Assembly (NCBI GenBank): GCA_963796455.1
Contig: CAWCLO010000004.1
Span: 832,001 to 896,000, forward strand
Reading direction: 5' to 3'
Origin: Candidatus Sulfomarinibacteraceae bacterium
GTDB lineage: Bacteria; Acidobacteriota; Thermoanaerobaculia; Thermoanaerobaculales; Sulfomarinibacteraceae
DNA: 64,000 nt
Shown: positions 12,906 to 46,935 of the stretch, one piece after another
How positions within the stretch are numbered: the first letter of the stretch is position 1
Layout of the letters: every line of letters begins with the position of its first letter
The notes under the pieces: generated by a model
Told to the model about the DNA's origin: nothing
What the model saw: only the letters and a program-made list of their open reading frames with translations
Database searches by the model: none
Position numbers and translations under genes: made by a program

Positions 12906-13012
12906 TCAGCCTTTCCCTGCAGTCCACCCAACGGTCCGATTGGCCCGGCCCGAGACCGCAGTGGGTGGGGCCCGTTGGAACGTCGTGTCATACCCATGTT
13001 CAACAATAATAC

Positions 13013-13540
13013 CTAGCGCGAGTCGGTCCCTCGGAGATCGATGGCCAGATATCGGGAGGGTCCGTATTCCGGGTCCTCGAAGTCACGCAAAAATCGAAAT
13101 CCGGCTTTCTCGAACGCCGCAAGCGCTGCATGATTCAAACGCGACGTCCCGACGCCCGCCCAGCGCACCTCAGAGTTTTGGCGGAGGCGGTCGATGAGCA
13201 GGCAGAGTGCCCGTGGCCCTATTCCGCAGCCGACGAACCGCAGTTCACCGATGAGAATATCGATGTCGAGAAGGGCATCGGGGAGGTCAGTCAAGCCGGC
13301 GGCCATGAGCTCTTCGACTTCAGGTGGTCCCCAGCAGAGGTATCCAACGGGAATGGTATCCACGACGATCACTGCGTGAGTGCTCGGGCGTCGGCCCAGC
13401 AGAAGGGGAAGAGCTTGGATCTGATCGCCCCACCAGCGAATGACATGTGGGCGTTGGAGCCAGGCATCGAGCAGTTCCCGGTGTTTTTGCGGATTGACCG
13501 GTTGGAGTTCTACGTGATTCTCAAAGCTTTTTGGATCCAT
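13013..13540 (-). CDS. GNAT acetyltransferase (aminoglycoside 6'-acetyltransferase-like fold)
   Basis: WLQRPHVIRWWG, IDILIGE...GCGIG, NHAALAAFEKAGF. Confidence 0.8.
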   Translation of the reverse strand: MDPKSFENHVELQPVNPQKHRELLDAWLQRPHVIRWWGDQIQALPLLLGRRPSTHAVIVVDTIPVGYLCWGPPEVEELMAAGLTDLPDALLDIDILIGELRFVGCGIGPRALCLLIDRLRQNSEVRWAGVGTSRLNHAALAAFEKAGFRFLRDFEDPEYGPSRYLAIDLRGTDSR

Positions 13541-13762
13541 AGCGTCGTTTTGTGCCTTATAGGTTTTAGGGGTTTCTGCTGGGCATCATAAAAGGAACAG
13601 TTGTGGTTGCAAGGATTGCCCATTTGGGGTCGTCGAAGGAATTGTTGAGATTCAGGCGCGAATCGAGTACCCATGTTCCCTGGACCGGTTTGCTACCTCT
13701 TCCCTGGCGGATTCAGACGGTTCGTTGACGTTGCACGACTCAGCTGAACCGAGTGCGGGTGT

Positions 13763-14110
13763 CTATTTCATGGGAGTGCCGAGTGTGACTTCATAGGACT
13801 CGATGAGCCACTTTTCCCAGACTTTATTGGGTATCGGCTGCTCCGCTGTGAATCGGGCGGTCACCCAACCCGTCGATCCCACTTCATACCGCTTCGGATC
13901 CTCCTCGGCGAACTTGAGCGCCTCCGGTATCGAGGCCTTCAGCTTGAACATCGCTTTGAATCCTTGTCCCTTCGGGCCAGGGCCGATAAACAAAAAAGTG
14001 CCCTTCCCGACTTTGAAAGTGCTTTGGGAGCACGACTTTCCTGTTAGCACGCCCGGAAGGGCCAGAGCTTGCCGCAGAATTGCGTCTGTGGGGTCTTGGA
14101 TACCGCTCAT
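13763..14110 (-). CDS. MmcQ/YjbR-like protein
   Basis: FKVGKGTFLF...GWVTARF...WLIESY; GGAGG before MSGIQ. Confidence 0.7.
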   Translation of the reverse strand: MSGIQDPTDAILRQALALPGVLTGKSCSQSTFKVGKGTFLFIGPGPKGQGFKAMFKLKASIPEALKFAEEDPKRYEVGSTGWVTARFTAEQPIPNKVWEKWLIESYEVTLGTPMK

Positions 14111-14179
14111 TTTGAACCTCCTGTCGAGAGCCCGCCGTGCAGCACTGGTCTGCTGCAACGATCTGTAAGGTGGCCCGCA

Positions 14180-14362
14180 CTAATGCAGTTCCTGTGAGTC
14201 ACCTGGCTGCAGAAGATCCCATAGGTTGCCGTAGAGGTCTTGAAACACGGCCACTGTACCGTAATCGAATTCCTTTGGTTCGCGCACGAAAACGACGCCT
14301 TTTGACCTCAAGAGGTCGTAATCGCGAACCACGAGGGAGACAATTGCAAGTTTGCGCTTCAT
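14180..14362 (-). pseudogene. VOC family protein with internal in-frame deletion
   Basis: N-terminus SLVVRDYD fused directly to C-terminal LRSKGVVFVREP...YGTVAVFQDLYGNLWDL. Confidence 0.75.
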
Positions 14363-14473
14363 CTGTTCAGACCTTCCTGTGCCTCGGCGAGGGTTGCCTG
14401 AGGTTTCGAATCCAGCCGACCGAGGCCGCTACGGTTGGGAGTCCGCTGGAATGAAGCGTTAGGCCTCCAGCTG

Positions 14474-14800
14474 TTAGCCGTGCTTCGCTCCGGTGCCATC
14501 GGGTTGCACGCCAATCCAATCTTCAGCAGAGGGAGACGGTCGGCGCTCGGGGAACCCTTGCTGACCAAAACTGTATTGATTTCCGAAATCGTCTTCTGCA
14601 ACGAAAGGAGATTCAGATGGCAATAGCTCAAGTCTTGAGGTGAGTTTGGCGAATGACTCCTCAGAAAAGACAATCGTCCTCAGGGTATTCTCCGCAGTGG
14701 CATAGAGCAGGACTCGAGTCGGCCATTTACCGTGCGAAAGATAGAAGCCATCGACGGCCGCGCAAAGCCTGATCCAGCTCTGATCAAAACCATTTGGCAT
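14474..14800 (-). CDS. Hypothetical cassette protein
   Basis: 108 aa ORF, GGGAG RBS, between attC-like sites. Confidence 0.7.
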   Translation of the reverse strand: MPNGFDQSWIRLCAAVDGFYLSHGKWPTRVLLYATAENTLRTIVFSEESFAKLTSRLELLPSESPFVAEDDFGNQYSFGQQGFPERRPSPSAEDWIGVQPDGTGAKHG

Positions 14801-14813
14801 AATGCATCTCCCT

Positions 14814-14845
14814 GTCTGACGGTCCGCTGCATCCGTGGGTCAGGT
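14814..14845 (-). repeat. Collapsed 32 bp attC remnant
   Basis: GTCTGAC-GGTCCG-CTGCATCCGTGGGTCAGGT has the same length and ends as consensus with the segment between the two GGTCCG removed. Confidence 0.6.
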
Positions 14846-14868
14846 GTCGTGGCCCGTGCGGCTACATG

Positions 14869-15249
14869 TTATTCGGCGTTTGGTTGAGACGATCGAACGA
14901 ACGACTGGAACCCACCGTACGCCATCCGTTGAGCATCAAATCCTGAATTCGATGAAGCAATCAAATCCGCCATCCTTGGGTCCGCCGCGACCTTCTTGTT
15001 TACCAGATCACGTGCCTCACGAGAATCAAATACCACCCATCCAAATACGATGACTTCATCCTCCGTTGCAGCTATGAGATCAGTGAAGGAGCGAGTTCCC
15101 TCCAGTCTCAAATCGTCACCGACGAATTCCCGGTAGTCGAGCGCGCCATGTTCCTTCCAGATCTCCGCAACCGCTTCAGCGAGACGCTTGTACTCATTCA
15201 GGCGATCGCGCGGAACGGGAAGAACGAATCCATCAACATAGTCAGCCAT
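14869..15249 (-). CDS. DUF1428 family protein
   Basis: YVDGFVLPVP...WKEHGALDY...ADPRM...RMAYGGF. Confidence 0.9.
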   Translation of the reverse strand: MADYVDGFVLPVPRDRLNEYKRLAEAVAEIWKEHGALDYREFVGDDLRLEGTRSFTDLIAATEDEVIVFGWVVFDSREARDLVNKKVAADPRMADLIASSNSGFDAQRMAYGGFQSFVRSSQPNAE

Positions 15250-15290
15250 AACTGCTCCGATAGTGGTAAGTGAATCTTGTGTTTTCAGCC

Positions 15291-15381
15291 GCCGAACGGC
15301 TGCGAGCTGAGCGGCGCCGCCAATCCCACTCCAATCTTCAACTCCACCCCGGGCGGCGTCCGCTCCAGCGAGTTGTTAGGG
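15291..15381 (-). repeat. attC of a second family (~91 bp), related to 17628-17762
   Basis: GCCGAAC...GGGCGGCGTCCGCTCCAGCGAGTTGTTAGGG. Confidence 0.8.
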
Positions 15382-15410
15382 GCCCAATCAAGCTGGTGCA
15401 CGGCAGAGAA

Positions 15411-15800
15411 TCAGTCGCGATGGTATGTTGCAACGTACCAGTTGTTTCCTGCTGGATCCTTGACAGCTGAGGCGCGCTCTCCATAGTCCATTTCCATGGG
15501 CTCGTGTAGAACCTCGGCTCCATTTTGCACGGCGCGTTGGTGGCATTCGTCTACATCCGGTACATAGATGTGAATCGCACCTGGCATCGGTCCGTACGCG
15601 TCGGTAGCGTCGGCCAGTTCAATGGTGGCGTCCCCGAGCCGCACCGATGCATGTCTGAGCCGCCCATCCTCCGTCTCGACCCTGTCAGTGACCTCCACAT
15701 CGAATACCGCTACTAGAAAGTCCAGCAGCTTCTGCGCACCGTCGACAGTGAGGTAGGGGGTCACGCGGGTGAAACCGTCTGGCACATAGGACTCGCTCAT
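15411..15800 (-). CDS. VOC/PhnB-like protein
   Basis: VTPYLTV...HIYVPDVD...YGERASAVKDPAGNNW. Confidence 0.9.
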   Translation of the reverse strand: MSESYVPDGFTRVTPYLTVDGAQKLLDFLVAVFDVEVTDRVETEDGRLRHASVRLGDATIELADATDAYGPMPGAIHIYVPDVDECHQRAVQNGAEVLHEPMEMDYGERASAVKDPAGNNWYVATYHRD

Positions 15801-15933
15801 GATGCTCCTCCTCGAAAAACTTGGTCGGACACGTTGGCATCGCAACCGAAAACAACACGGTCAGACGGGCGCCTAGCGGTCCGAGTTCAGCGGATCGAGG
15901 CCGCCGCGGGTGGGGGTCAGCTGGAACGAGGTG

Positions 15934-16413
15934 TTAGGTTTCATGAGAGTTCGACTCTTCTGGCCAGAGGTCCCAAAACTGATACATGAAAATTTCGAAG
16001 AAATCCCCCATCATGAGCGCCCACAACAATGCATCCAATAGTGATGGCTCCTTGACCGTCTGTTTGGGATCCCAGTCGCGAGGATTTTGAGTGTCCAATA
16101 TTTGCTGAATCGAGGATTCTCGGAAGAAGAGGCCGGAGCAAATACGACAGGCTCCGAATGGGACGGCTCGAAACACACCAAATCTGAAGTTCGCCCCCCC
16201 GCACTTCGGACAAGGAGAAGCTTCACCGACATTGGCAATTCGAAATTTTTGGTCCGAAGGAACCGGTCGCTCTGGAGTGGAGCGGATACGGCGAAGGTAT
16301 GGCGCGAGTTCGTTCCGTTCGAACCAGACAGCTCGGCAGGACCCACATTCGTCTACGGTCACGCCCATCACGGTTCGATCCGCCATCTGATGATTGCAGT
16401 CAGGACATTTCAT
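15934..16413 (-). CDS. Double zf-TFIIB Zn-ribbon protein
   Basis: MKCPDC...VDECGSCRAVWFERNEL...CPKC...CRICSGLF. Confidence 0.8.
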   Translation of the reverse strand: MKCPDCNHQMADRTVMGVTVDECGSCRAVWFERNELAPYLRRIRSTPERPVPSDQKFRIANVGEASPCPKCGGANFRFGVFRAVPFGACRICSGLFFRESSIQQILDTQNPRDWDPKQTVKEPSLLDALLWALMMGDFFEIFMYQFWDLWPEESNSHET

Positions 16414-16530
16414 GTTTTCGCTCTGGACCTAACGGTCCGAGGTCAGCGGCCCGAGGCCGCGCAAGGCGCGAGAAGGGTCCGCTTGATTGCCGGGTTAGGC
16501 TTCGTTTGAGTACCCTTCGCAAGTTCGACT

Positions 16531-17022
16531 CTATCTTGCGGGCTCATTCGCCGTCCAACTGATGGCTACCAGCCGCCAGTGTCCTTCAATCCTCTGCCAA
16601 ACCCCCAGATACTTACCCTCGCTCAGAACTTTTTCACCGGAAATCTCCAGCATCAAATGGCTCCTGCCGTCCAGGTAGGCGAGGTCGCCTGAAGCTGCAA
16701 CGATAATTGTGTCCGCTTGACCGGAAAACTCAACGTAGGGAAGCGTGAACCAGCGCTGCTCATAGAACCGTCTGATGGCTTCATTCCCCACAATAGCGGG
16801 AAGGCCCGGCGGATGAAAGACAGCATGTGGTGCGACCAAAGCCATTGCGCTTTCCAAGTCTCTTTGCTCCTCGGCCTGCAATAAGGCTTGGTCAGCTTGT
16901 CGAATCTGGTCCACTACTGCTTCAATATCCATTGAGGCACTACGGTTTCCGGCACAGCCGGCAGACAGGGCAGTGGCCACCGCCAAAAGAACATAGGCAA
17001 ATATGCGATTCACAACAGACAT
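16531..17022 (-). CDS. DUF4440/SnoaL-like lipoprotein
   Basis: LSAGC lipobox; SGDLAY, GKYLGVWQR. Confidence 0.85.
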   Translation of the reverse strand: MSVVNRIFAYVLLAVATALSAGCAGNRSASMDIEAVVDQIRQADQALLQAEEQRDLESAMALVAPHAVFHPPGLPAIVGNEAIRRFYEQRWFTLPYVEFSGQADTIIVAASGDLAYLDGRSHLMLEISGEKVLSEGKYLGVWQRIEGHWRLVAISWTANEPAR

Positions 17023-17150
17023 CCTCCTTCAGCTTTTTCTGCCATCAGAGATCTGAGGCCTAACGATCCGAGTTCAGCGGACACCACCCGCCGCGGGTCG
17101 GGGTCCGCTGGAATGAGGTGTTAGGCGATTGTCGCATTTCAAACTTGAAC

Positions 17151-17525
17151 CTAGGCCTCGGGCTCATGGCATATCGCTTCGATGTTGTGCCCATCAGGGC
17201 CGATGACGAAAGCCGCGTAGTAGCTGGCGTGATAGTGCGGACGCAGACCAGGAGGACCATTGTCCTTGCCGCCCGCTTCCAGAGCCGCGCGATAGAAGGC
17301 CTGTACTTGCTGACGGCTCTCAGCCACGAATGCCAAGTGAAGATGCGCCGGCTTCTCCTTTGTTTCATACAAGCACAGTGAAACCGTGCCCTTCGGTTGG
17401 CTTAGCTCGACACCGTTCGGCGGCCACTCTCTCACATCAGTGACTCCGAGTGGCTCCAGGGCCCTGACGAAGAAGGACCTGCTCGCCGCATAGTCGCTGA
17501 CGCCGATTTTGACGTGGTCAAACAT
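17151..17525 (-). CDS. VOC family protein
   Basis: MFDHV...GGKDNGPPGLRPHYH..YYAAFVIGPDGHNIEA. Confidence 0.95.
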   Translation of the reverse strand: MFDHVKIGVSDYAASRSFFVRALEPLGVTDVREWPPNGVELSQPKGTVSLCLYETKEKPAHLHLAFVAESRQQVQAFYRAALEAGGKDNGPPGLRPHYHASYYAAFVIGPDGHNIEAICHEPEA

Positions 17526-17627
17526 GGGTTCTCCTGAATCGCCCGGTCCTGTGCGGGTGGGGCCACAGTCGGTTCATGGCCTGGCTGTTGAGGGGTGCTA
17601 GGAGCTGCACGGTGCGCTTCTTCCGAG

Positions 17628-17762
17628 ACCTAACGCCCTCGAGCTAACCGGAGCCGCGAGCGGTGGCACCCGGAACCTCGGTTGCTTGAACAATTCACGT
17701 TGAGAGTCTACAACCTCTCCAGCAACGCGAAGGGCGGCGTCCGGTTCAGCGAGTTGTTAGGG
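17628..17762 (-). repeat. attC of second family (~135 bp)
   Basis: ACCTAAC...GGGCGGCGTCCGGTTCAGCGAGTTGTTAGGG. Confidence 0.8.
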
Positions 17763-18140
17763 GCGCCCACCATCCAACGGTTCAAAGGTGCCATTGCCCG
17801 TCAAGTGAACCGCCAGGCACGTAACTGCCACGAAGAGACCAAGGCCGGTCATGTAGAGCGCTTCGACAGGGGTATCCGCCTTCAGAAAGAAATGAAAGTA
17901 CGTCAACGCACTCAAAAAAACGGCTAGAAATCCACCCCACGCTACCGCGTTGAGGAGACGCCCAATCGGCCGCCTGATCAACACAACACTGATCAGCATA
18001 ATGAGACCAAGCACGAGGTCCGCAAACGTAAACTGGTTGATGAACCCGTTCTTCCGAACATAAAGCCACTGGAATAGCGGAGCTCCAACGCCGTAGAAGA
18101 CGCCCCAAGAAACGAGCCACGACTTTGCAAATCTTGACAT
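17757..18140 (-). CDS. Membrane protein
   Basis: 4 TM; stop inside attC R''. Confidence 0.75.
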   Translation of the reverse strand: MSRFAKSWLVSWGVFYGVGAPLFQWLYVRKNGFINQFTFADLVLGLIMLISVVLIRRPIGRLLNAVAWGGFLAVFLSALTYFHFFLKADTPVEALYMTGLGLFVAVTCLAVHLTGNGTFEPLDGGRP

Positions 18141-18232
18141 GAACGAGAGTATACCTCGGAGCCAGTCGCACCGAACGGTCCGAGTTCAGCGGCCCACACC
18201 CGGCGCGGGTGGGGGTCCCCTGGAATGACGGG

Positions 18233-18727
18233 TTAGGACTCGGGCACCTCTTGCGTTTGACGATTTTCATACGCTTTGGTGCCGATCCTCTCGTCGATTT
18301 GGTCCACGAACCAAATGAGTTCCTTTTCGGTTGTTGAGTAACCTGACCGCCTGATGTGGCTCATTGCTTCTCGCATCAACCGTACGTCCTTGTCCGTTTC
18401 GCCTTCGGCTCTTGCCAGCTTTGCCAATCTCGTTCGGTTGACTGCGATCTCGTGATGGAAAGAGCCACGCTCAAGTTCGTCTTCTGACTCTTCTGCGAGT
18501 CGTTAGAGCAGCTCGTTTTCCCGATCAAGGTATTCCTCGGCGACAGGGTAGGGCGCGTGCAGATAGATGGCGTAGGTGTAGCCAGAAACTTCGGCGGCTT
18601 CAGCGATTCGCCCCATGGGACGCCACATGGAATCGAGACGTTCCTGAGCCAAGACGACGAGCGCTGCACCCGCTATCAGTCCAAGTAGAAAGCCGATGAA
18701 GCCGCCTTTGATGAGAGGTCGTTTCAT
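18233..18727 (-). pseudogene. Hypothetical protein with in-frame TAA at 18503
   Basis: ORFs 18503-18727 and 18233-18427 share a frame; 165 codons in total; AAGGAG RBS. Confidence 0.7.
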
Positions 18728-18803
18728 GACATGTACTCCTTGGGATGGGCCTAACGGTTCGAGCTCAGCGGCCCAAACAGCTGCGCTGTTTGGGCCGCTG
18801 GAA

Positions 18804-19874
18804 TCAGGGGTTAGGCACCGATTGGTTTGTTTCGGAAACGAATTTTGCGGTGCTGAACCAGAACAAAAGGGAGGCTGGGATCAAAAAAAGAACCCACGAA
18901 AATCTACCGATCACGTTCATTGTCTGAATAACAACCTGATAGGCATAGGGAAAACTCATGTCCGATGCCTCGAGGTGCGAAGCAAGCACCGGCACGACTT
19001 TCCACAACCAGAAGTAGGCGGCCAAAAATGGGCCAATCAAAAGTGCAGGAATCAAAAGTAGCCACAACTGAAGCGCGAACCACGGTCCAAGTGTCTTCCA
19101 AGTGAAAATGGATCTCCAGTTAGTTTGCTCAGAAGAGGATGCTGCAAAAAGAATCTTGCCTTGTATCAAAGGAGCAATACTGGAGAACAAGAAATACGCT
19201 ACAAGCGCCAGTGCCTGCACCATGATCCAGCCGGACATAGCCTGGTATCGGAGAAAATCAGCGCCTTTCTCAAAGATCTCTATCGCGAGAAAAATCCCAA
19301 CAGCCGAAAGGCCCGGCCATCGGAGTCGCCACCAGCGGTTGGCGAACCTCCCAGCGACAACTGCCGGCTGGCACAAAGAAATCGGAATGGCCACAAACGC
19401 GATCACCAGAACGGTTGCCATCAAGAAGATGTCATCGTTTGAGATTGTGATGAAAAGGAGAGCAATTGAGGCAATCGAGAGCAGTGAAGCCGGCCAAAAA
19501 ACCATCGATCGGAGAGCCCATCTGAAACTGCGGAATCCGATTGATTCGGGGTCCAGAGATACCAACCGACTGACACTGGCGACCACTGAGCCTATCGCCG
19601 CAGCCACAAACGTGATCAAGAAAAGAAACGTCAGTGGGTGTGTCGGTAGGTCAAGGTGGAGATAAGCGCCTACAATGCTCAGTGCATCGTCTGAGTTCAT
19701 GCGAAGGAAATCTGAGTATTCGGGTCGAATGGCCACTCCAGGGTGAAGCATGCCCTTTTCCCACAGTACGAGAAAACCGGCAATCCAGAGACCTGTCCAA
19801 AGACCTATCAGACCTCCGCAGCCCCCGCCCACGAGAAGTATTGGTTTCCAGTTATCGTTATTCATCGATGTCAA
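18804..19874 (-). CDS. Multi-pass membrane protein
   Basis: 356 aa with about 8 hydrophobic segments; fills the cassette. Confidence 0.8.
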   Translation of the reverse strand: MTSMNNDNWKPILLVGGGCGGLIGLWTGLWIAGFLVLWEKGMLHPGVAIRPEYSDFLRMNSDDALSIVGAYLHLDLPTHPLTFLFLITFVAAAIGSVVASVSRLVSLDPESIGFRSFRWALRSMVFWPASLLSIASIALLFITISNDDIFLMATVLVIAFVAIPISLCQPAVVAGRFANRWWRLRWPGLSAVGIFLAIEIFEKGADFLRYQAMSGWIMVQALALVAYFLFSSIAPLIQGKILFAASSSEQTNWRSIFTWKTLGPWFALQLWLLLIPALLIGPFLAAYFWLWKVVPVLASHLEASDMSFPYAYQVVIQTMNVIGRFSWVLFLIPASLLFWFSTAKFVSETNQSVPNP

Positions 19875-19973
19875 TCTTACGTGCGAAGAAGGGGAGTATT
19901 CCCGTCATTCGCCTAACGTTCCGAGTTGAGCAGGCCGAGGCCGCCGGGGACTCGGGTCCGCTGGAAGGAGGTG

Positions 19974-20216
19974 TTAGATCGTATTGCCCGAGATACCATC
20001 TAGGATTCCCCGAATCCAATCGATCTTCCCTTTTCTTTCGGGGTTGTCGATAGCGTGCCTCACTTTGTCGAGTTGTGCCCTTTCGTAGCACTCCATCCCG
20101 TTGCGATTTTGCCGTTCGATTTTTCCAGCACGAACGAGTCTGTCAAACACACGCGCCTGCAAATGGATGTATGCGATCGCGTCCTTTCTCTTGAGGTATT
20201 TCGAGGATCGTCCCAT
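19974..20216 (-). CDS. Small MerR/excisionase-like HTH protein
   Basis: YLKRKDAIAYIHL..RVFDRLVRAGKI. Confidence 0.55.
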   Translation of the reverse strand: MGRSSKYLKRKDAIAYIHLQARVFDRLVRAGKIERQNRNGMECYERAQLDKVRHAIDNPERKGKIDWIRGILDGISGNTI

Positions 20217-20340
20217 GAGAAGTCCCAGACTAACCTAAGGGTCCGAGTTCAGCGGACGCCAACCGCCGCGGGTGAGGGTCCGCTGGAATGAGGTGTTAGG
20301 CCGACACATCACCTAACACTTGCGATCTCGGCACTCTGGA

Positions 20341-21003
20341 TCACCTCGACATGAGTTTGCGCCGAACGATCTTTTGCTCCTCGGTGAATTCGAAGATGTA
20401 ATTGAAAACCACAAAACCCTGATCTTTCATTTCAATCACACCCTCCTCGAGTGTTTCAGCAGGCACAATCTCTTGGGGAACAGAGTCATCAAACATCCAA
20501 GAGTATATATTCTCTCCTTCCGCCATCGAATAGACCCGAATACGGTAGCTGCCATCCTTTGTAGATAATGTACTGGGTCTCTTCCATCCACGCCAAGGCG
20601 CTTCAAACGTAACAACCACGAAATGCGAGTCGAACTGTGCCAACCCGACAATGCGAGACGTTGAGTTCAACGGATACCGTTGCACTCCGAGCAATTCTCC
20701 TGTCATACAGAGCCACTTTGTTTCCCCTGTTTCAAGATTGGTGTGAGATAAGACATATCCTCTGCGAGTCCGAAACAGCTGACCGGGATTACCAATAGAA
20801 CCCCAAAACGCGTTAACGGCGCTGCCGGAACCGGAAGCAATCAAACGGGCAGCATGATCGAAGTCCCATTCGGCCACTTCGCTAACGGCCGGTTCCTCTG
20901 CGGCGATGATCATCGTCGCGAATATCGTTATCGCTATTAGAAGCACCTGCAGATGAGGGAATCGCTGAACCACTTCGCTCTCCTTCCTAGGTTGGGGCGC
21001 CAC
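20341..21003 (-). CDS. Secreted hypothetical protein
   Basis: 220 aa with N-terminal hydrophobic segment. Confidence 0.65.
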   Translation of the reverse strand: MAPQPRKESEVVQRFPHLQVLLIAITIFATMIIAAEEPAVSEVAEWDFDHAARLIASGSGSAVNAFWGSIGNPGQLFRTRRGYVLSHTNLETGETKWLCMTGELLGVQRYPLNSTSRIVGLAQFDSHFVVVTFEAPWRGWKRPSTLSTKDGSYRIRVYSMAEGENIYSWMFDDSVPQEIVPAETLEEGVIEMKDQGFVVFNYIFEFTEEQKIVRRKLMSR

Positions 21004-21658: not shown

Positions 21659-21756
21659 GAATTGCCTAACGGTCCGAGTTCAGCGGCCCGCACCCGGCCC
21701 GGGTGAGGGTCCGCTGGAACGAGGTGTTAGGTACGTGTTGATTCCTATGACTCCAT

Positions 21757-34663: not shown

Positions 34664-34665
34664 GG

Positions 34666-38579: not shown

Positions 38580-38640
38580 CTAACGGTCCGAGTTCAGCGG
38601 CCCGCGGCCGCCGCGGGTGAGGGTCCGCTGGAATGAGATG

Positions 38641-39165
38641 TTAGGTAAGCCTTCTCTCGATTTCATCATTGAGTCGATCCAGACTGTCATTGAGGTGGTG
38701 AACCAAAGCTGAATACGCGTCGTCTGGCGAGTAGAGCGGGTTGAGCAGGGAAAACCCTTGTGAGATCTCAGACACCTCTCTGCCAAATGTAACGGTTTCT
38801 TCGCCGTGGAGTTCAGTAAACGAGGTGATCTGGTAATCGCTAGTTCCTTCGAAATCGCCGCGGAGTTTCTCCCAGGTCACCCCGTGCTTGGCCATGCATC
38901 GCATGACCGATTCCAGAACTGCCGCGCACTTTGGCGCCCCGATTCGCTGAAGCGCGTCGGCCGTTGCTCTGAGGTGTCTGCCGTTCGGGTTTTCGAGAAA
39001 CCCGATCATTCCATTCATGTCGATCTCTGTGTCACAGTCGATCAACATTACTGTGAGATGGAGAGGATTCGATAGGTTCGGGTAGTCCGATTCGTCCCGG
39101 ATCAGGGAAAGTGGTTCCTCGTAGATTCTTACCGACAGGTCTTCAATGACTTCTTCAACTGCCAT
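38641..39165 (-). CDS. DUF4375/DMP19-like protein
   Basis: EIDMNGMIGFLEN..G......ALQRIGAPKCAAVL. Confidence 0.7.
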   Translation of the reverse strand: MAVEEVIEDLSVRIYEEPLSLIRDESDYPNLSNPLHLTVMLIDCDTEIDMNGMIGFLENPNGRHLRATADALQRIGAPKCAAVLESVMRCMAKHGVTWEKLRGDFEGTSDYQITSFTELHGEETVTFGREVSEISQGFSLLNPLYSPDDAYSALVHHLNDSLDRLNDEIERRLT

Positions 39166-39275
39166 GGTTCAATTGCCTAACGGTCCGAGTTCAGCGGATC
39201 GAACCCGTCGCGGGTGAGGGTCCGCTGAAATGAGGTGTTAGGCATTGCTTTCAAGTTCATTTCCAAGCCGGACCG

Positions 39276-39593
39276 CTATGATTCTCTGTCCCACTCGACG
39301 TATACCTCGTCGGAGAAAAGGCCGAAAAGAGTGCTGCCGAGACAAACCCATCCGCTCAAGGTTCTTTCAGGACCGTCCGCAACCGAAATACGGAACACGC
39401 GCTGCCGACCAATAACAGTCCAAGAGAAAGGCCCTCTATCGATCGCGCAGATCTTGGCGCTCTGAAGTTCGATTTTGTGCTGATCCGCCCACCTCTGCAG
39501 CGCTACGAATCCGGATCTGCGGTACCACCACAACCCTAGCAACATCCAAGACACCATAAGGCAGATCACGGTTAGAAAAAGCAGTGTCTTCAT
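39276..39593 (-). CDS. Hypothetical protein with N-terminal TM
   Basis: GPFSW, QRVFRI, GWVCLG. Confidence 0.7.
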   Translation of the reverse strand: MKTLLFLTVICLMVSWMLLGLWWYRRSGFVALQRWADQHKIELQSAKICAIDRGPFSWTVIGRQRVFRISVADGPERTLSGWVCLGSTLFGLFSDEVYVEWDRES

Positions 39594-39700
39594 TAGGGCT
39601 ATTGCAACCTTTACCTAACGGGCAGGGAGTTGAGCGGACCGAACCCGCCGCGGGTGCGGGTCCGCTGGAACGAGGTGTTAAGCATACCGTTCGTTCATTC

Positions 39701-40084
39701 TTACAAAGGATCCTTCACGGATTCGAGCATTGGCTGCAAACGCTTCCATAGAAGAGGCTGGTCGCGTTCGAGACCCCAGACTCCAGTCAACGCCAAACGA
39801 AACTTGGCGTCTTTTCGTGCGAGTGACTCGATGCGCGCAAAGTAGCTGTCTCCAGCTGCTCGCAACAGGTCTTCGAGAGGACCCGCTGCCACCTTCGCCA
39901 AGAGTGCCGGGGCTCCCTCAGGTATTCGCCGTACTAACTCGGTTGAGATTTGCCAGAGTGTTTCCCACTCCCGCTCGGACGCCATATCGGCGAGTTTTTC
40001 GAAGGTCCAGAACAACCCGTCGTCACCGGTCTTCAAATACTCGAGGTGGTCTTCTATCAACCGGTCTTTTTCTTCAGCGTTCAT
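39701..40084 (-). CDS. DUF6869-like protein
   Basis: AAGPLEDLL...FRLALTGVW. Confidence 0.65.
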   Translation of the reverse strand: MNAEEKDRLIEDHLEYLKTGDDGLFWTFEKLADMASEREWETLWQISTELVRRIPEGAPALLAKVAAGPLEDLLRAAGDSYFARIESLARKDAKFRLALTGVWGLERDQPLLWKRLQPMLESVKDPL

Positions 40085-40312
40085 TTAGTACCTATCACTT
40101 TTGCCTAACGATTCGAATTCAGCGGACCAGACCCCCGCCGCGGGTCGGGGTCCGCTGGAAGCTGAGGTGTTAGGCATCGACAGAAATGTTGCATATGTGG
40201 CATCCTACGAGCCCGAAGAGCGCTGCAATTCCTAGATTATCAAAATTCCTACGCCCCAAATAATGAAGAGGCGAGGTGTTGCTGGGCCCCAAGGGATTCC
40301 ACGTGAATTTCT

Positions 40313-40507
40313 TCAGTGGCGTCGTTGATCTTGTTTTGCGCCATCGGCCATTGACTTACTGGCAGTGATTGCCAAAATGCCGCTAGCGACTAGGAACAAC
40401 GCTCCTACCCTTGTTGCTCTCCCAAAAGCGACAAGTACTCCAGCCGCCATGAGCCCAAAAACGAAGCGTAGAATCCAATGGTGTCGGTTAATACACTCCG
40501 AACCCAA
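40313..40507 (-). CDS. Small membrane protein
   Basis: GGGAGG RBS, 2 TM. Confidence 0.5.
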   Translation of the reverse strand: MGSECINRHHWILRFVFGLMAAGVLVAFGRATRVGALFLVASGILAITASKSMADGAKQDQRRH

Positions 40508-40585
40508 ACCTCCCTGCCTAACGGTCCGAGTTCAGCGGACACACACCCGCCGCGGGTGGGGGTCCGCTGGAATGAGGTGTTAGGG

Positions 40586-40930
40586 CTTCAATCAGGATTC
40601 TTGACTTTTCTGAGCCACATTTTGCGTACTTCGCATTCAAGAAGGGTGAGGAGCACCTGTCAGTCCCGAGAGTCAAGGAGCTGAAAGGCGGGTAGACATC
40701 CAAAAAGGACACAGCAACGATGCCGACGATAATACTCACGAGCCGCGACCATTGCAATCATCGCTAGAAGAAAGCTCGCGAAGACGGATCTACCAGGAAA
40801 CGTGCTTGGGAGCCCTTCCGATCAGAGCTCTACCTCGGTACGCAGCATCTTCGAGCTGACGAACGCCATGACAAATCCCCAAGACAAGATCGCTGACAGC
40901 GAAGTGGTCGCGACAATACTTCATACCCAT
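40586..40930 (-). pseudogene. Fragmented membrane-protein cassette
   Basis: Hydrophobic fragments in several frames; no full-length ORF. Confidence 0.35.
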
Positions 40931-40998
40931 GAATCTTGACGAGATGCGGGTTGCCCTGTCAATGTCTCCAACGCTCAGTAGTCCTATTCCTAGTTTGG

Positions 40999-41105
40999 CA
41001 CTAACGGCACGAGGAGTTAACCTGGGGCGGTCAGGTATAACAGTGTCGCACGCCGTCGTGCGACTAGTAGCTTGGCGTCAAGTCTGCTCGAACGCACTGT
41101 TGGAA
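40999..41105 (-). repeat. attC of a third family (~107 bp)
   Basis: CACTAACGGCACGAGGAGTT...GAACGCACTGTTGGAA, similar to 42021-42120. Confidence 0.6.
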
Positions 41106-41266
41106 GGCCGAGGTCGAGAAGAGTCGAACGGCCCGTGAAACCGTGGCGTACATTCAACAACGATGACCCGTCCGTTGGGACTGCGCTTAACGCTGCGCTA
41201 ACGGTCCGAGTTCAGCGGACACGAACAGCGTGCGCGGTTTGGGTCCGCTGGAATGAGGTGTTAGGC

Positions 41267-42006
41267 CAAAAATGTCGCACTTCAGACTTTAACTCAGGTC
41301 TCCACTTCAAACTTGAGCATCCAACTGCAAGATCGCAACGATGCCACCGCCTCAAAAATGCATTATGCACTCGCAGGTTACATCGTCCCAACGCCTGGTC
41401 GTACCGTCTAGCCACTCAAATGCATAGCGACGCTGATACACGGACCTGCCAATTAAGGTCTTCCGGTAACGGTTTGTTTTCCCTGCGGGCACGCGAAGGC
41501 ATGGCACCAAAGAAGTCATACCGAACGGTCGTCCTCTGCGAGGAGCTCGCCGGAGGTACGGAGCCTTGAGCACAGCTACGAATCGGGCCAATATCGGACC
41601 CAAGCGGTGGGATGATCTGGTCCACGAGGAGGGCTGTCGTCACAGCACTGCGTCGGCAAACCGAGGGACTCCTAACCCTGCCGATGCACCAAAGAAGACG
41701 TCCATTCGGCTTCTTGCCGCCAGTGTGCCTCGTGGAGCTGGCTTTTCGAGGGGCTTGGCGAGAGCAGAAACTCCTTTCACGGGGTGACGCATGACACCAG
41801 GTACTCTGTTGTTTTAGCCAGCGCCACGACTGGTGAAAAATCAATCATATATCCTTGACTACCCAACCCCTGGAGAACGACGATTCGATACGCGATTCTT
41901 CTGGCCGTTCTGCCGCAGGGCTCATGGTCATTTCCGGTACCTCAGGCGCGCTGAGGGTATCCGCGATGCCATGCGATTTTGCCCATTCTGCAGTTGTTTT
42001 CACCAT
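41267..42006 (-). pseudogene. Degraded cassette with multiple stops
   Basis: Starts MVKTTAEWAK at 42006, stop at 41845, further broken frames. Confidence 0.35.
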
Positions 42007-42020
42007 GAGGTTCCGTCTGC

Positions 42021-42120
42021 GCCTAACGGGCACGGGAGTTCCTGGGCCGAGCAAGGATATCAGTTGGACGCTTGCGTCCGACTGTAGCCTGCGATGGTCC
42101 GCTTGAACGACCGGTTGGCC
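42021..42120 (-). repeat. attC of third family (~100 bp)
   Basis: GCCTAACGGGCACGGGAGTT...GGTCCGCTTGAACGACCGGTTGGCC. Confidence 0.7.
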
Positions 42121-42311
42121 GGCGCCGCGCCGGTCACCGGGCGTGCAATTAACTCCCTGCCCGTTGGCGCGGCGCGCAGCGCCGCGCCAACGGTCCGAGT
42201 TCAGCGGCCCGAGGCCGCGCAAGGCGCGGACTTGGGTCCGCTGAAACGAGGTGTTAGGCGTTTGTTGTACTCCAAAGTTGAATCTACGCCTGAAAACGTC
42301 GCCCATGTTCG

Positions 42312-42857
42312 TCAGACCGATACCTGGTTCTCGAGTTCGTTCGGCCCCTCTAGTTGAGTTACCTTGACGATTTCACCCTCGAAACCATAGTAGGTGATCG
42401 CATCTCGGCTAAGGTCTACCCTACGAATTATCGGGTCGGATTCACCCCACATAAAGTCATCGAGCAAACGATAGTGCTCTGTTCGGTCTTCATGAAACAC
42501 GAGCACCCGGTCCTTTCGCTTGCGGGAGATCTCGATCTTGTTGACTTCAATGAGAGTGCCGTCGGTTTGGCGTGTGGCAAAAGAGGAAATCCCGAATCCC
42601 GGGAAAATGAGGTTGTGTGTTACATCCACCTTCTCCTGCCGGGTCAAAGGACGATCTGGTATCTTCCGTTCTTCGATTGCCTCCTCAATAGTGTCGGCCT
42701 GCTCCGATGAAAGTTTGTTTGGATCACTCTTGAATTCATCAAAGTCCTGCCAATCACCGCCTCGCAGCCGGACGTCACGGCCTTGGAACTCGACTGAGGT
42801 CGTACCGTCAGGATCTCTGGCGCATGGGAGGTGTAAACGGGCTACGGGAGCCATCAC
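42312..42857 (-). CDS. Hypothetical protein (5' end probably frameshifted; may start near 42962)
   Basis: 181 aa ORF; upstream signal/lipobox-like fragment. Confidence 0.6.
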   Translation of the reverse strand: MMAPVARLHLPCARDPDGTTSVEFQGRDVRLRGGDWQDFDEFKSDPNKLSSEQADTIEEAIEERKIPDRPLTRQEKVDVTHNLIFPGFGISSFATRQTDGTLIEVNKIEISRKRKDRVLVFHEDRTEHYRLLDDFMWGESDPIIRRVDLSRDAITYYGFEGEIVKVTQLEGPNELENQVSV

Positions 42858-43044
42858 GCGACCACAGCCAGAGGACGAATACCAAGATTGAAAGACCGAA
42901 GAACTGCTTGATGCGGTGAGAGCTAATTTTTTTCACGTGCCGAGATTTCCTTGATGATTCATGGCTCTTTCTGAAGCCTAACGGTCCGAGTTCAGCGGCC
43001 CGAGGCCGCGCAAGGCGCGGACTTGGGTCCGCTGGAATGAGGTG

Positions 43045-43422
43045 TTAGGCATAACTTGATCCTAGCCAAAACGGATGTTGGAGAGCCATACAAAAATAGA
43101 CGATTCCAGAATAGCCTCCAGACCTGTAGTGACTGCCGCGGTCCAAATCCAGTTCTTCTCGGACCGCGAAAACCGGCACGGGTTCGGGTGCGCCAACGTA
43201 CAGAGGGCCTCCGGTGCTTTCCCTCGCATAACTGATGATGAAATACGTTAGAGCGACCTGAAGGGGAATTCCTATCACTAGCCCGAAGGTGGATGGGATG
43301 AACAGATATGCAACAACCGTTGGAGCCAGCCGGAGTGAAATAGGGGTGGCAACGCCGAATGCATTCAGTAGCGCCACCGTTGCCCACGACCACCAAAGCG
43401 GTCGATTGTTTGAGGACATCAC
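43045..43422 (-). CDS. Membrane protein
   Basis: 2 TM; stop in attC R''. Confidence 0.55.
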   Translation of the reverse strand: MMSSNNRPLWWSWATVALLNAFGVATPISLRLAPTVVAYLFIPSTFGLVIGIPLQVALTYFIISYARESTGGPLYVGAPEPVPVFAVREELDLDRGSHYRSGGYSGIVYFCMALQHPFWLGSSYA

Positions 43423-43542
43423 TTGGTCATCGCTCTCTGCCTAACGGTCCGAGTTCAGCGGACACCACCCGCCGCGGGTTGGGGTCCGCTGGAACGAAGC
43501 TGTAGGTCGTTTCCATTTAAGTCTTTACATCCCCAAGAGGAA

Positions 43543-43818
43543 TCAAACCCCTGAATATTGTAAAAACACTGCCAAAAGGTCGATCGCCACCAAGATCCAT
43601 CCGGCAAATGGCGATTGTGGCCCATCGGCGATATCGAGCCAACAGATTGATGGCTTCAATTTCTCCGATAGCCCAATTTGGGGTTTCTCGGTACCACTTC
43701 CAGAATAACGAGCCGCCAGCCTGCGTGCTTGAGAGGTTCCAGGACCCAACCTCCCGTTTGCTTTCACCGTCACCGGGTGGCCGTCCGTCGCTGATCCAGA
43801 TCTGATGGTGATTCTCAT
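43543..43818 (-). CDS. Hypothetical protein (possibly degraded)
   Basis: Longest minus ORF in the cassette. Confidence 0.35.
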   Translation of the reverse strand: MRITIRSGSATDGHPVTVKANGRLGPGTSQARRLAARYSGSGTEKPQIGLSEKLKPSICWLDIADGPQSPFAGWILVAIDLLAVFLQYSGV

Positions 43819-44012
43819 ACTGATATTCGATCAGTCTTGTGCGGCGACGCTTTTCGCTATCGAAATGCTGTACGCGAAACGCGACCGATACCAGCGAGTG
43901 TCAGAGGCAACATCTCTAGGAACATGTCGAAACCTAACGGTCCGAGTTCAGCGGACCGAACCCGCCGCGGGTGAGGGTCCGCTGGAACGAGGTGTAGAGA
44001 CCTCGGACCATC

Positions 44013-44423
44013 TCAGCGCAATGTTCCTGTAGAGCCCTGATGTTTTTCTGTGGAGCATCGAACTGCTCGTACAGCAGATCCCAGCGCCCGGTTGGCACGG
44101 GAAGCCGAGCTGCGTTCGCCCTGCCCAATGGCGGCCTGAATCAGGGACATGAGTTCTCGTGGGAGATCCTCGGCCATGGGGAGGAAGACGAATGAGCCGG
44201 AATCAGTCCAAGCCCTCGACGCCCAGATTTTTGCAGTATTGGGCTCCAAAGCGTCCTCACCCAGGTGCATGGACAATGGAAAGACGGCGAAAGGTGGCTC
44301 CCACCAGACAGGACAGCTGGAATCGCCGCCGAAGTCCGTAAGGAACACGCCGCGCTCCCGAACGAGCGAGGCCATTCTGTCTGTGGCATTGTAGACATCC
44401 GCGAGACAATTTGGGTCACACAC
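44013..44423 (-). CDS. Hypothetical protein (possibly degraded)
   Basis: 136 aa ORF. Confidence 0.4.
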   Translation of the reverse strand: MCDPNCLADVYNATDRMASLVRERGVFLTDFGGDSSCPVWWEPPFAVFPLSMHLGEDALEPNTAKIWASRAWTDSGSFVFLPMAEDLPRELMSLIQAAIGQGERSSASRANRALGSAVRAVRCSTEKHQGSTGTLR

Positions 44424-44549
44424 GACCAGGGGCTCACCTGACGTTTGCAGAGAGAAGCGGTTCGTAAAGCCTAGGTCTGGAAACGGCAGCTGCTGAAGTC
44501 CTCATCGGGGAGGGACAAGACGCCTCCTTGTCAATCATCTCATCGGCTC

Positions 44550-44993
44550 CTAACGGTCCGAATTCAGCGGACCGAACCCGCCGCGGGTGAGGGTCCGCTC
44601 GAACGAGGTGTTAGGTGTCATCATGAGGGTGGATGGCGGATCTGTATGGAAGTGGACGCTCCTAACACCAGCCGCTTTAAGGCCCTCCATCACCACGTTG
44701 ACGCGTTCGTATGGGGTTTCCCGATCTATTTTCAAAACGAATGGGCGTTCCGGAGAAGAGACGGCGATGTGTTTGATTGCTTGGTGAAGCTCTTCCGTCG
44801 AAACCACGGGTAGCGCGGTATCTTCTCCGTTAGATATTCGAATCTTCCCGTGCTTGCTGATACTGATAATTGCGGCATCATCCGGTATCCGTTTGCCGGT
44901 CACAGCTGTGGCGGCCCTGTACTTGCCTCCATAGTTACTGAGTCCCGGCAGATTCAGGTCCAGCAGAGAAAGGCATTGAAAGGAATAGATCAA
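44550..44993 (-). CDS. ExbD/TolR-like biopolymer transport protein (reads through attC)
   Basis: LDLNLP, IISISKHGKI, VLKIDRETPYERV..VM..LKAAGV. Confidence 0.75.
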   Translation of the reverse strand: MIYSFQCLSLLDLNLPGLSNYGGKYRAATAVTGKRIPDDAAIISISKHGKIRISNGEDTALPVVSTEELHQAIKHIAVSSPERPFVLKIDRETPYERVNVVMEGLKAAGVRSVHFHTDPPSTLMMTPNTSFERTLTRGGFGPLNSDR

Positions 44994-45213
44994 AGCCCCG
45001 AAAAGAAGCCACGGATTCCACGGTTTGGTCGTTTTTCCAGGCGGGTCGTTGCGATTCTACGGTTGTGAGTCGCTTCCCTAAGTCCATTTAACGCCCTTGA
45101 TAGTATGACCGTATTCGAGCATCCTAGTTCCTGAACCTAACGGTCCGAGTTCAGCGGACCACACCCGCCGCGGGTGGGGGTCCGCTGGAACGAGGTGTTA
45201 GGGCAAATTGCCT

Positions 45214-45921
45214 TCATTTTCCGTCGATATCGATCACAAGGACTGATGCATCGTCTTCATTCTGGGTGGTGCCTGTGAGTAGGGCCGATATACACGACTC
45301 ACGTTGATCAAGTTGCAGCGCCGCGGTGATCTTGTCTATTGTCTGCCAGCGCCAGAATCCATCTGTACACAAGAGATACCGGTCCCCAGCCAGAGTTGGT
45401 ACCTGGAGATTGTTCAAATTCACAGGTGGGTTCGGTTCCGACAGCGTTGGATACCATTGTTGCCAAAGGATGAGCGGCGATTTCAGTTGGCGGCACACCG
45501 GCCTCCAATTGCTCCATTTCCCACGTTTGTTCGGTGTTGAGCAGTTCCACGTTTCCGGCCCTACAACGGTACAGTCGGCAATCACCAGCGAACACAATCA
45601 CGACAGCCGAATCGGTAATCGATAGCAACATGACAGTCGCAAATGCTGCAATCTGGCTATTAGTTTGGCCCTCTTTCGAAAGGCGGATTTGTTTCCCTCA
45701 ACTGCCGCCGCAAGCAGAACATCAAGATCAACCTCGATCTCGCAATCACCAGGCGAGCAGACTCGGTTTTCGAAAGACTCTAACGCCGCCGCAAGAAAGG
45801 CGTTGGCCATCTTCCCATCTGCAATACCCCAGAATCGAATTTCATCTCTGACGACGCACACGTCTTCGTTGAGGCGTCAATTACGGCCACGGACCGTCTC
45901 GCAGGCGCTGGTTGCGATCAT
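45214..45921 (-). pseudogene. PP2C-family Ser/Thr phosphatase, disrupted
   Basis: GRN*RLNED (TGA at 45877), IADG, AGDCRLY, LLCTDGFW, EDDASVLVI spread over three frames. Confidence 0.8.
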
Positions 45922-45940
45922 CGCATGTATCCAAGACAAA

Positions 45941-46058
45941 CCCTAACTCATATTAGCGATACGAATACCAGGGACCAATTCGTGCTTCATTCGATCGATA
46001 ACGTCTCCCAAGGCCCGGCTCTCGCGGGGGTTCGAATCGCGGCCGAGGATTGTCAGCC
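45941..46058 (-). repeat. Degenerate long attC closing the first cassette
   Basis: Minus strand GGCTGAC ... GCGATTCGAA / TTCGTATCGC ... GTTAGGG. Confidence 0.55.
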
Positions 46059-46319
46059 ATGTTTTGCTTTAAGCGGGTATTTCTGTGGGTTTTCGAAGGA
46101 ATCGATGGTGAGGTCGACATCGAGATCCGGCCAAAACAAATGATTGTCGCCTGGCCGTTCGAGCTTGAGCACGGAGTCGACCGGAGCGTTCCTGAACCAT
46201 GGAAACTCGTCAAAAGGCAGGAAGAGCTCGCGGTCGTCGACCAACAGCCAGACGCCGTGTCTGGAGATGTTGGTGACCTCAGCCGACGAAGTGCTGTTTC
46301 CAAGCGGTACGGATGACAT
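46053..46319 (-). CDS. DUF2442 family protein (putative antitoxin)
   Basis: EVTNISRHGVWLL...FPWF...WPDLDVDL. Confidence 0.9.
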   Translation of the reverse strand: MSSVPLGNSTSSAEVTNISRHGVWLLVDDRELFLPFDEFPWFRNAPVDSVLKLERPGDNHLFWPDLDVDLTIDSFENPQKYPLKAKHG

Positions 46320-46518
46320 CTTCGTGCTCCTCGACCATCTTACGAATGCTGGCCAACTCTCATTTCGAAAGACCGTGACTTCGAGCCAATTCTACCTCGG
46401 GTTCGATCCAGTATTTTGCCTCGCCCTCGTTTGAGACTACGTGGATGTGCATTCTGGTTTCTTCTCGTGAAAAGAAATAGAAACGATATGGGCCGCTGCG
46501 AAAGACGGTAGTGCTCAT
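46279..46518 (-). pseudogene. DUF4160 family protein (putative toxin) with in-frame TGA at 46360
   Basis: [27 protein letters not shown]...EAKYWI...GLSK*ELASIRKMVEEHEDVIRTAWKQHFVG. Confidence 0.85.
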
Positions 46519-46583
46519 CTGTCCGCTACATGTAAGCTCTGAATCGAAGGTAGATAGAAGGGGGTTATCGTGCAAAATCCGCT

Positions 46584-46606
46584 CGCTAACACGACTCGTT
46601 TTAGCG
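46584..46606 (-). other. Candidate attI-like site
   Basis: Minus strand CGCTAAA-ACGAGTCGT-GTTAGCG, 3 bp after the integrase stop and ahead of the first cassette. Confidence 0.4.
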
Positions 46607-46609
46607 TCC

Positions 46610-46935
46610 TCATTTCCCGGTCCAAAGGGTGTCGGCGGGCTGGTGACGCCGCGCCCTCCAGCCTTGCCGATGATGTGGGTGTAGATCATGGTGGTCTTGA
46701 CATCTTTGTGTCCCAGGAGCTCCTGGATGGTGCGGATGTCGTAGCCGGCCATCAAAAGGTGGGTGGCAAAGCTGTGGCGAAAGGTGTGGCAGCTGACCTT
46801 TTTGTTGATCCCGGCTTTTCGGGCTGCGGAATAGATGGCCTTGCGAACGACCGATTCGTGGAGGTGGTGGCGCCGAACGATGCCGGATCGGGGATCGATA
46901 CCGCGTTTGGAGGCGGGGAAAACGTACTGCCATTT
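46610..46935 (-). pseudogene. intI: Integron integrase, C-terminal ~105 aa only
   Basis: [28 protein letters not shown] (IntI patch), [37 protein letters not shown] at 46936-46938 immediately upstream; 1 bp shift before [10 protein letters not shown]. Confidence 0.92.

Follow-up and report, generated by a model that had tools for sequence, protein, structure and literature searches.

An ops-like leader at the head of a large inverted integron in Candidatus Sulfomarinibacteraceae: a possible target of an RfaH-like antiterminator

In the standard model of integrons, expression is limited to cassettes close to the promoter, and large arrays of gene cassettes are silent stores from which the integrase brings genes forward. 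We analyzed a 64,000-nucleotide stretch of DNA (the window) from a Candidatus Sulfomarinibacteraceae bacterium (GenBank assembly GCA_963796455.1, contig CAWCLO010000004.1, positions 832,001 to 896,000; G000:C4:832001-896000 in our labeling). It holds an integron of 56 cassettes on the minus strand, a remnant of the integrase gene intI and, ahead of both, a conserved leader (47995..48141, minus strand). We found that this leader carries a site resembling ops (operon polarity suppressor) of Escherichia coli and that the same site lies directly behind the gene for an RfaH-like NusG paralog in related genomes. The array alone is an ordinary integron; the novelty is the ops-like leader borne by its platform. 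An earlier sequence-only reading had set the extent of the element at 12927..46935 and so missed its most unusual feature, the leader at 47995-48141. We tentatively propose that an RfaH-like antiterminator has taken the integrons of this acidobacterial order into its regulon, that the array is expressed in full as one operon, and that intI was discarded while the site was kept, a combination that we regard as possible rather than probable.

The source genome (G000) comprises 5.02 Mb in 10 contigs and is 90.5% complete. The genomes and metagenome contigs with which it was compared are kin and not independent samples. No RNA run was listed among the sequencing runs, and the DNA shares were all at most 0.17; hence, these runs were not used for habitat or expression. 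No paper linking integrons with RfaH, ops, or antitermination was found in the literature covered, most subscription papers being outside that coverage.

The ops-like site and the RfaH-like paralog

The leader was delimited by alignments of 9 and of 29 leaders. It is about 145 nt long and presents, in order, a -10-like hexamer (48135-48130), a long-range stem, an inner hairpin, and a second hairpin with the ops-like site. The latter hairpin (48029-48014) and the ops-like sequence GCGGTAGC (48008-48001) make up an RNA hairpin and predicted loading site at 48001..48029 on the minus strand. The site follows the pattern of a hairpin and then GCGG-N-AGC, and GCGGTAGC contains the C3-G4-G5-T6-A7-G8 core of ops on the sense strand of the leader. 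Four pairs of leader helix 1 are changed on both sides, and none of 500 shuffles reached eight such cells, a comparison made among kin that are not independent. The leader is single-copy in the source genome, is common to all platforms of the genus, and moves with the platform across at least four chromosomal sites. No Rfam family was found in the window or the leader. Readings of the leader as a hammerhead and as a sigma-54 element were rejected by eye, core and spacing not being conserved in either case.

We searched for the site with a matrix trained on 29 paralog-linked sites alone and with a cross-check matrix trained on 15 sites from other genera. Among 10,047,378 genome positions, the top match to the first matrix is window 48035-47997 (26.5 bits, with the next match at 6.8), and the same site is still first with the second (28.3 versus 13.1 bits). 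Sense-strand matches of at least 22 bits occur at 14 of 14 integron loci of the genus, at a fixed position (-117/-118) in 7 of them. The same threshold is reached at 3 of 21 other-family loci (G033, G062, and G034) and at 0 of 6 sister-family loci; G035, G065, G067, and G068 have the core only, without the matrix score. The best antisense score is -8.5 or lower at all 41 loci. Thus, the motif is strand-specific. The sister family has a different variant, with TG at 11-12, which stands before intI at 3 of 6 loci and, in G046, after a second, degenerate paralog.

A DNA search with the leader, which cannot reveal leaderless arrays, matched integron loci over the full length and other places over 40 bases (22 of 77 family genomes). 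The 40-base matches lie directly behind a NusG paralog that heads polysaccharide-type genes (gene names by eye). This paralog, of about 170 residues, is present in 45 of the 77 family genomes. We examined 37 paralog loci, 35 of which include the gene end, and GCGG-N-AGC behind a hairpin is found no more than 160 nt from the gene end in 29 of these 35. The best model for the paralog is RfaH (TIGR01955, 70.8 bits), the UpxY model scoring lower (64.9 bits), and RfaH proteins also come first in sequence and fold comparisons. Of the ops-contacting residues of RfaH (K10, H20, R23, and R73), the paralog retains K10 and H20 and has Q-R at 23-24 in the aligned stretch. Exact matches to the site pattern numbered 111 in metagenome contigs, and 80 of them were examined: 42 are behind the paralog, 8 before intI, 7 in integron-type leaders, and 23 elsewhere, the last group including 3 truncated paralog-type sites and otherwise showing no conserved flanks by eye. 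Six further exact sites in genomes comprise three integron-derived sites, one at the head of a polysaccharide-type operon, and two unassigned. A class-wide search that allowed one mismatch returned mostly chance-looking matches outside the family, and exact matches were confined to the family; G507 enters that tally and no other claim.

The bases of the site vary in a characteristic way. C3, G4, G5, and A7 are invariant in the 29 integron leaders and G8 is present in 28 of them, while position 6 varies. This set was partly chosen by pattern. Because selection by pattern fixes the core columns of the paralog sites and of the metagenome leaders, the evidence that counts as a test comes from the hairpin columns and from leaders taken from genomes. 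In E. coli ops, G4C, G5A, A7T, and G8C abolish recruitment and T6A cuts it about 3-fold (PMC5995543), and the base pattern of the leaders fits this mutagenesis. Among 174 hairpin cells behind the paralog, we counted 140 Watson-Crick pairs, 31 G-U pairs, and no A-C pairs. Thus, G-U is kept and A-C never occurs, as expected for an RNA on the sense strand.

Proposed antitermination and its alternatives

E. coli RfaH is loaded at ops in leaders, keeps NusG and Rho away, and turns on long foreign operons (PMC5995543, PMC6391919, PMC7593976). In the mechanism that we propose for the integron, transcription would start at the -10-like hexamer and run through the hairpin and the site, and polymerase would pause at the hairpin plus GCGGTAGC. 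The paralog, made in trans from an ahcY-linked polysaccharide locus, would bind there and block Rho-type polarity over the foreign, lower-GC cassettes. The predicted product is a single termination-resistant transcript through intI and the attachment site attI and far into the cassette array, here possibly a unit of about 50 kb including a tail without attC sites. Intact platforms have a second promoter, TTGACA-17-TATGCT, downstream of the ops-like site, which is predicted to drive intI separately and which is deleted in the window. The inverted layout would let one loading site serve the whole element. Once useful cassettes were in place, the integrase could be discarded repeatedly and the loading site kept, which would leave a fixed antiterminated operon. 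On this evidence, we lean toward the view that the paralog is recruited at the site and that antitermination reaches into the array. For expression of the entire array, our view is more tentative, and the balance tips slightly against it.

The fate of intI bears on the last step. Among 18 loci of the genus with the leader, intI is intact at 7, has a single frameshift at 2, and shows a large deletion or is missing at 9; some of these losses may share an origin (G000 with G020 C10, and the two G014 copies). Selection on expression of the array would explain why the leader outlives intI.

Several observations weigh against the proposed mechanism. At the site, the YG pause dinucleotide lies at 12-13, one base later than in E. 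coli ops (11-12), and position 6 does not covary between the two sites of a genome. JUMPstart (Rfam) is unmatched in the window at the gathering score and has no match at E<=5 on the G008 leader. The second array of the source genome, on contig C1, has attI and no leader. In genus g3, the site is absent at 11 of 11 loci, at least four of which are inverted with arrays, and no outgroup intI locus scores above 0.3 bits (n = 104, three without upstream DNA). Thus, inversion does not need the ops-like site; on a general link between the two, 86 of 121 loci gave no clear attC orientation. As for the protein, three paralogs score 66.9-72.2 bits, below the TIGR01955 cut-off of 144.5 that defines the RfaH equivalog, and a proline occupies the position of R73. 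RfaH has an autoinhibited, alpha-helical C-terminal domain that refolds; in the predicted structure of the paralog, the C-terminal part has predicted local distance difference test (pLDDT) values of 32-64 and one helix at 140-152. Finally, the paralog was not found in the source assembly. The gene ahcY and the polysaccharide operon linked to it are likewise missing from this assembly, and no MtnN was found above cut-off. In the genus, ahcY flanks the paralog and is present in every one of the 14 genomes that carry it. Because this neighbor is missing too, the absence of the paralog is likely an assembly gap, with true loss as the alternative.

We weighed four other explanations. In the first, the paralog is loaded but serves only intI and the first few cassettes, or aids translation, and the distal array is silent. 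Distal cassettes are generally silent, with attC hairpins hindering translation and not transcription (PMC8876359), many cassette open reading frames (ORFs) here look frameshifted, and transcription of the array runs head-on to replication. Against this, the leader is retained at the 9 of 18 loci where intI is largely or wholly gone, and RfaH works over long operons (PMC7593976). In addition, promoter-like sites in the array do not exceed those of shuffles (10 versus 8.9 and 3 versus 8.4), and a T-run follows none of the 51 attC sites. Counts of terminator-like sites (31 versus 18.8 and 17 versus 19.9 in shuffles) are not interpretable. We consider a short-range role unlikely.

The second explanation is that the motif is a shared promoter or operator, such as an integration host factor (IHF)-like or palindromic repressor site, that coregulates polysaccharide operons and the integron at initiation and not elongation. 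The hairpin arms are nearly invariant in the integron leaders, which is operator-like, and the flank behind the paralog is AT-rich and may resemble the IHF consensus. Against an operator, departures from the perfect palindrome are sense-strand G-U and never A-C, the motif is strand-specific and lies directly behind an RfaH-like gene, and the conserved and variable positions agree with ops mutagenesis (PMC5995543). We consider an operator improbable.

Third, the motif could be a functionless passenger from the polysaccharide locus, in a frozen, decaying cluster of attC sites lacking an integrase (CALIN) in which both intI and the paralog have been lost. The absence of the paralog from the source assembly, one broken pair in the window hairpin, and genus g3, which manages without the site, are all compatible with this. 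However, the core is kept while the spacers diverge, at no fewer than four chromosomal sites and in several genera, the sister family has its separate variant, and the window's own long stem bears compensatory changes, which makes a mere passenger highly improbable. The last explanation, that the intI truncation is an artefact of a 90.5%-complete assembly with several frameshifted ORFs and that the organism's integron is intact and active, is scarcely credible: the break lies deep in a 1.3 Mb contig, the insert has coherent ORFs between correctly ordered platform pieces, and similar deletions recur in other assemblies.

The antitermination that we propose resembles the E. coli RfaH, ops, and JUMPstart system in its NusG paralog, its promoter-proximal site on the nontemplate strand, the C3-G4-G5-N6-A7-G8 core, and the preceding hairpin, as well as in its polysaccharide operon targets and its predicted action in trans on unlinked foreign DNA (PMC5995543, PMC6391919, PMC7593976). 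It differs in that the paralog is below cut-off and without R73, the base at position 6 is unconstrained, the pause dinucleotide is displaced by one base, the factor gene lies directly before one of its sites, and the second target is an integron platform. Like the operon-encoded NusG paralogs UpxY and TaA, the gene heads a polysaccharide operon that is probably its activation target (PMC7593976). Unlike in those systems, the same site recurs at an unlinked locus, and the paralog scores lower with the UpxY model than with the RfaH model. In the standard view, cassette expression depends on position and distal cassettes are silent (PMC8876359), and why large silent arrays persist is an open question (PMC11023631). 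If our proposal is true, a platform-borne antiterminator loading site would be a way around the cassette position effect. It would also give the inverted layout of this lineage a functional basis, explain integrase-less arrays that keep the leader, and add integrons to the targets of NusG paralogs.

The integrase remnant and the inverted platform

The intI remnant is a 3' pseudogene (46615..46938, minus strand), 84% identical to residues 229-335 of the G008 IntI. The sequence-only reading had described an IntI fragment that reads toward the array on the same strand. This is borne out for a piece limited to codons 229-335 of a 336-residue IntI, with a one-base frameshift near its end. The assignment to IntI and not XerC/D also holds: the piece scores 161.9 bits with TIGR02249 (positions 213-311, below cut-off) against 86.6 and 84.7 for XerD and XerC, it has the IntI-specific insertion, and it clusters with IntIs of the same genus (88% identity). 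The tree is a quick one of 100 columns with many open forks and serves the questions of IntI versus Xer and of nearest kin only. Of the six named IntI records closest to it, five carry the title Ca. Sulfomarinibacteraceae, in agreement with the Acidobacteriota host that had been considered probable. No full-length or other intI was found anywhere in the assembly, and the element is not a complete integron. Since the assembly is without a full intI, the integron as assembled is dead, that is, unable to recombine by itself.

An insert of about 1.05 kb (46939..47990, minus strand) replaces the intI promoter and codons 1-228. It encodes two membrane-protein-like ORFs (47389-47982, with a weak DUF3566 match, and 46977-47357) and has no homolog in the relatives' loci compared; across the interval, the only parts of the window with a match in relatives are 47991-48140 and 46564-46939. 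Internal intI deletions recur elsewhere (L408, L119, and L289), and the two G014 copies join at a shared short CCGCCAC repeat. A TTAY-N7-TTAY direct repeat overlaps the -10 box of the relatives' intI promoters family-wide (L033-L040, L106-L117). In that spacing, it is absent upstream of lexA and recA of the source genome, which were examined for a possible link to LexA.

Directly after the intI stop lies an inverted repeat with two core-like boxes (46564..46612, minus strand), which is conserved in the platforms of the genus and in G026. It is followed by a DUF4160/DUF2442 toxin-antitoxin (TA)-like pair without its own attC (46053..46518, minus strand; Pfam). In G008 and G024, this pair occurs as an ordinary cassette with attC, and other TA-like pairs fill the slot between intI and attI in G008, G016, G024, and G020 (names by eye). 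That different attC-less pairs occupy this slot suggests that the platform has a second site or route of entry. Slot pairs seen in the window and at L035, L039, L040, L118, and L120 are DUF4160/DUF2442, BrnT-like, and helix-turn-helix antitoxin types, again with no attC. The predicted attI (45941..46003, minus strand) has an L box at 45958-45952 and an R box, GTTAGGG, at 45947-45941, separated by 4 bases, with a GTT box upstream. In the relatives compared, the attI motif (45941-45965) closes the conserved platform and precedes the first cassette. At L034, L037, L009, and L033, a short ORF or open frame just upstream of attI stops at a TAG in the attI core and is in this respect like ORF-11 of attI1.

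Inverted (reverse) integrons have been described in Treponema denticola and its relatives and in a few other lineages (PMC3607928, PMC6557892, PMC4889954). In the window and at same-genus loci, intI is co-oriented with the array and the predicted attI lies downstream of it, and in eight same-genus genomes (G001, G006, G008, G014, G016, G021, G024, and G022) attC sites of this family come after intI, again on its strand. Because relatives with a full intI show this arrangement, the comparison of loci indicates that the inverted layout is inherited and not a local accident; the inverted integrase and lineage-specific attC that had been proposed for the window stand. In the quick tree, the IntI clade to which the window belongs is separate from Treponema. 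The window differs from the Treponema reverse integrons also in its short, 69-bp attC family, in the TA-like pairs between intI and attI, and in the ops-like leader upstream of intI, of which the scan of Treponema loci gave no sign. Another inverted integron, in G035 (L042:52-6292), comes with its own homogeneous attC family of about 94 bp and an ops-like core upstream of intI. The sequence-only reading knew of no characterized example in Acidobacteriota, but acidobacterial attC sites are already on record: IntI occurs in 96 of 301 genomes of the phylum, integrons in Acidobacteriota are already in print (PMC8618304), and an Acidobacteria attC model has been built from 120 sites (PMC8352920).

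The platform occupies at least four chromosomal sites in the genus, with up to three copies in one genome. The window's locus is common to G006 (both flanks) and G022 (upstream flank), and there are at least three others. The element resembles Vibrio-type sedentary integrons and CALINs in having more than 19 homogeneous attC sites, small unknown ORFs, and TA cassettes, and it is like CALINs in that loss of the integrase leaves a cassette array (PMC4889954, PMC5371416, PMC11023631). Its description as sedentary agrees with the rule of more than 19 attC sites (PMC4889954), but the platform is found at several sites and in several copies. A further difference is that distal cassettes of sedentary integrons are described as silent, whereas here a predicted elongation signal heads the array.

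Orientation relative to replication also sets the array apart. The gene dnaA lies where the GC skew turns positive, and the plus strand of the window is G-rich. Therefore, transcription of the array meets replication head-on, and the lagging-strand template carries its attC bottom strands. Head-on arrays occur in G000, G006, G014, and G003 and codirectional arrays in G001, G008, G021, G024, and G005 (G016 was left unassigned). Thus, orientation is mixed in the genus and follows no rule. Intact head-on relatives have 11 and 14 attC profile matches, versus 56 cassettes with a dead intI here, and published arrays in the lagging-template orientation have at most 22 cassettes (PMC5371416). In Vibrio, inversion of the array selects for loss of the integrase (PMC11023631). 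The window would offer a naturally occurring example of a dead integrase beside a very large array that lies in the high-excision orientation. The parallel with the laboratory Vibrio result is suggestive only, because intI damage occurs at codirectional loci too.

The cassette array and its surroundings

The array (12926..45947, minus strand) was delimited by an attC profile, variant sites recognized by eye, ORFs, and Pfam. The profile, seeded on 29 regex-found repeats and run on genome contigs, finds 51 attC-type sites, all on the minus strand, from 12926 to 45203; 20 shuffled windows gave no match at >=19 bits. Five extra attC-like sites, longer or divergent, bring the total to 56 cassettes, in good agreement with the reverse-oriented superintegron of about 55 cassettes first described. 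The sites are 66-75 bp long (69 bp in 35 of 51). Their mean pairwise identity of 83% means that the roughly 50 repeats of 68-75 bp that had been called near-identical are as numerous as claimed but more diverse. Likewise, strict RYYYAAC...GTTRRRY ends are present in 30 of 51 sites and not in the remaining 21, and both core boxes are intact in 38. In 50 of 56 cassettes, the minus strand carries the longest ORF, which largely supports a co-oriented small gene before each repeat, two cassettes being gene-less. The bottom strands of three folded attC sites are more stable than the top strands and give the R box, spacer, and bulged L stem of attC.

The median cassette body is 495 bp, and GC content is 54.6% in the array versus about 61% in the flank. 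Cassette products are mostly small unknown proteins. Pfam names few of them: two TA-like pairs, one higBA-like (30388-30996, minus strand) and one hicAB-like (24626-25068, minus strand), glyoxalases, GNAT, DMP19, DUF4303, TrmO, and others. Among 58 proteins, PADLOC gave one weak match only to anti-phage systems. The product of the last cassette (13013-13540) is a GNAT (Acetyltransf_8) protein, possibly a relative of aminoglycoside acetyltransferases. Cassettes are common to different species at 81-98% identity, in changed order.

The two gene-less cassettes (42021-42191 and 41001-41202, minus strand) consist of a palindrome of about 25 bp and a long (145-180 bp) attC-like hairpin. Such cassettes also occur at L033, L035, L036, L039, L040, and L050, are conserved across species, and stand first in the array in G014 and G026. 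Another gene-less family, of 132 bp, is conserved in relatives, with tandem copies (L035:12598-12932, L041:8101-8435, L040:13065-13198, and L033:13945-14078), and is absent from the source genome.

Beyond the last attC, a tail of co-oriented cassette-like genes (1..12900, minus strand) encodes GNAT, glyoxalase, GFA, SnoaL, TfoX-N, and other Pfam families. It extends about 6 kb past the window, for about 19 kb overall, and the part at 1..12900 has no attC at E<0.01. Homologs of two of its genes (9324-10198) lie at the ends of the G008 and G024 arrays, which do bear attC there, and G006 lacks most of the stretch at its syntenic locus. Because of these two observations, the tail is probably an older portion of the array that has eroded. 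Four further attC-type sites, two of them partial, lie at a second locus, on C1. This small array (G000:C1:780742-787564) has the post-intI inverted repeat and attI, without intI or leader, and its first cassette resembles window cassette 4 by eye, which hints at past traffic between the loci. On the other side of the leader, the window contains three tandem units of about 196 bp of low-complexity repeat in an intergenic region (54868-55457). It also contains hairpin repeats like repetitive extragenic palindromic (REP) elements, as three tandem units of about 275 bp and further copies (48393-49218, 52770-53050, and 63957-64000).

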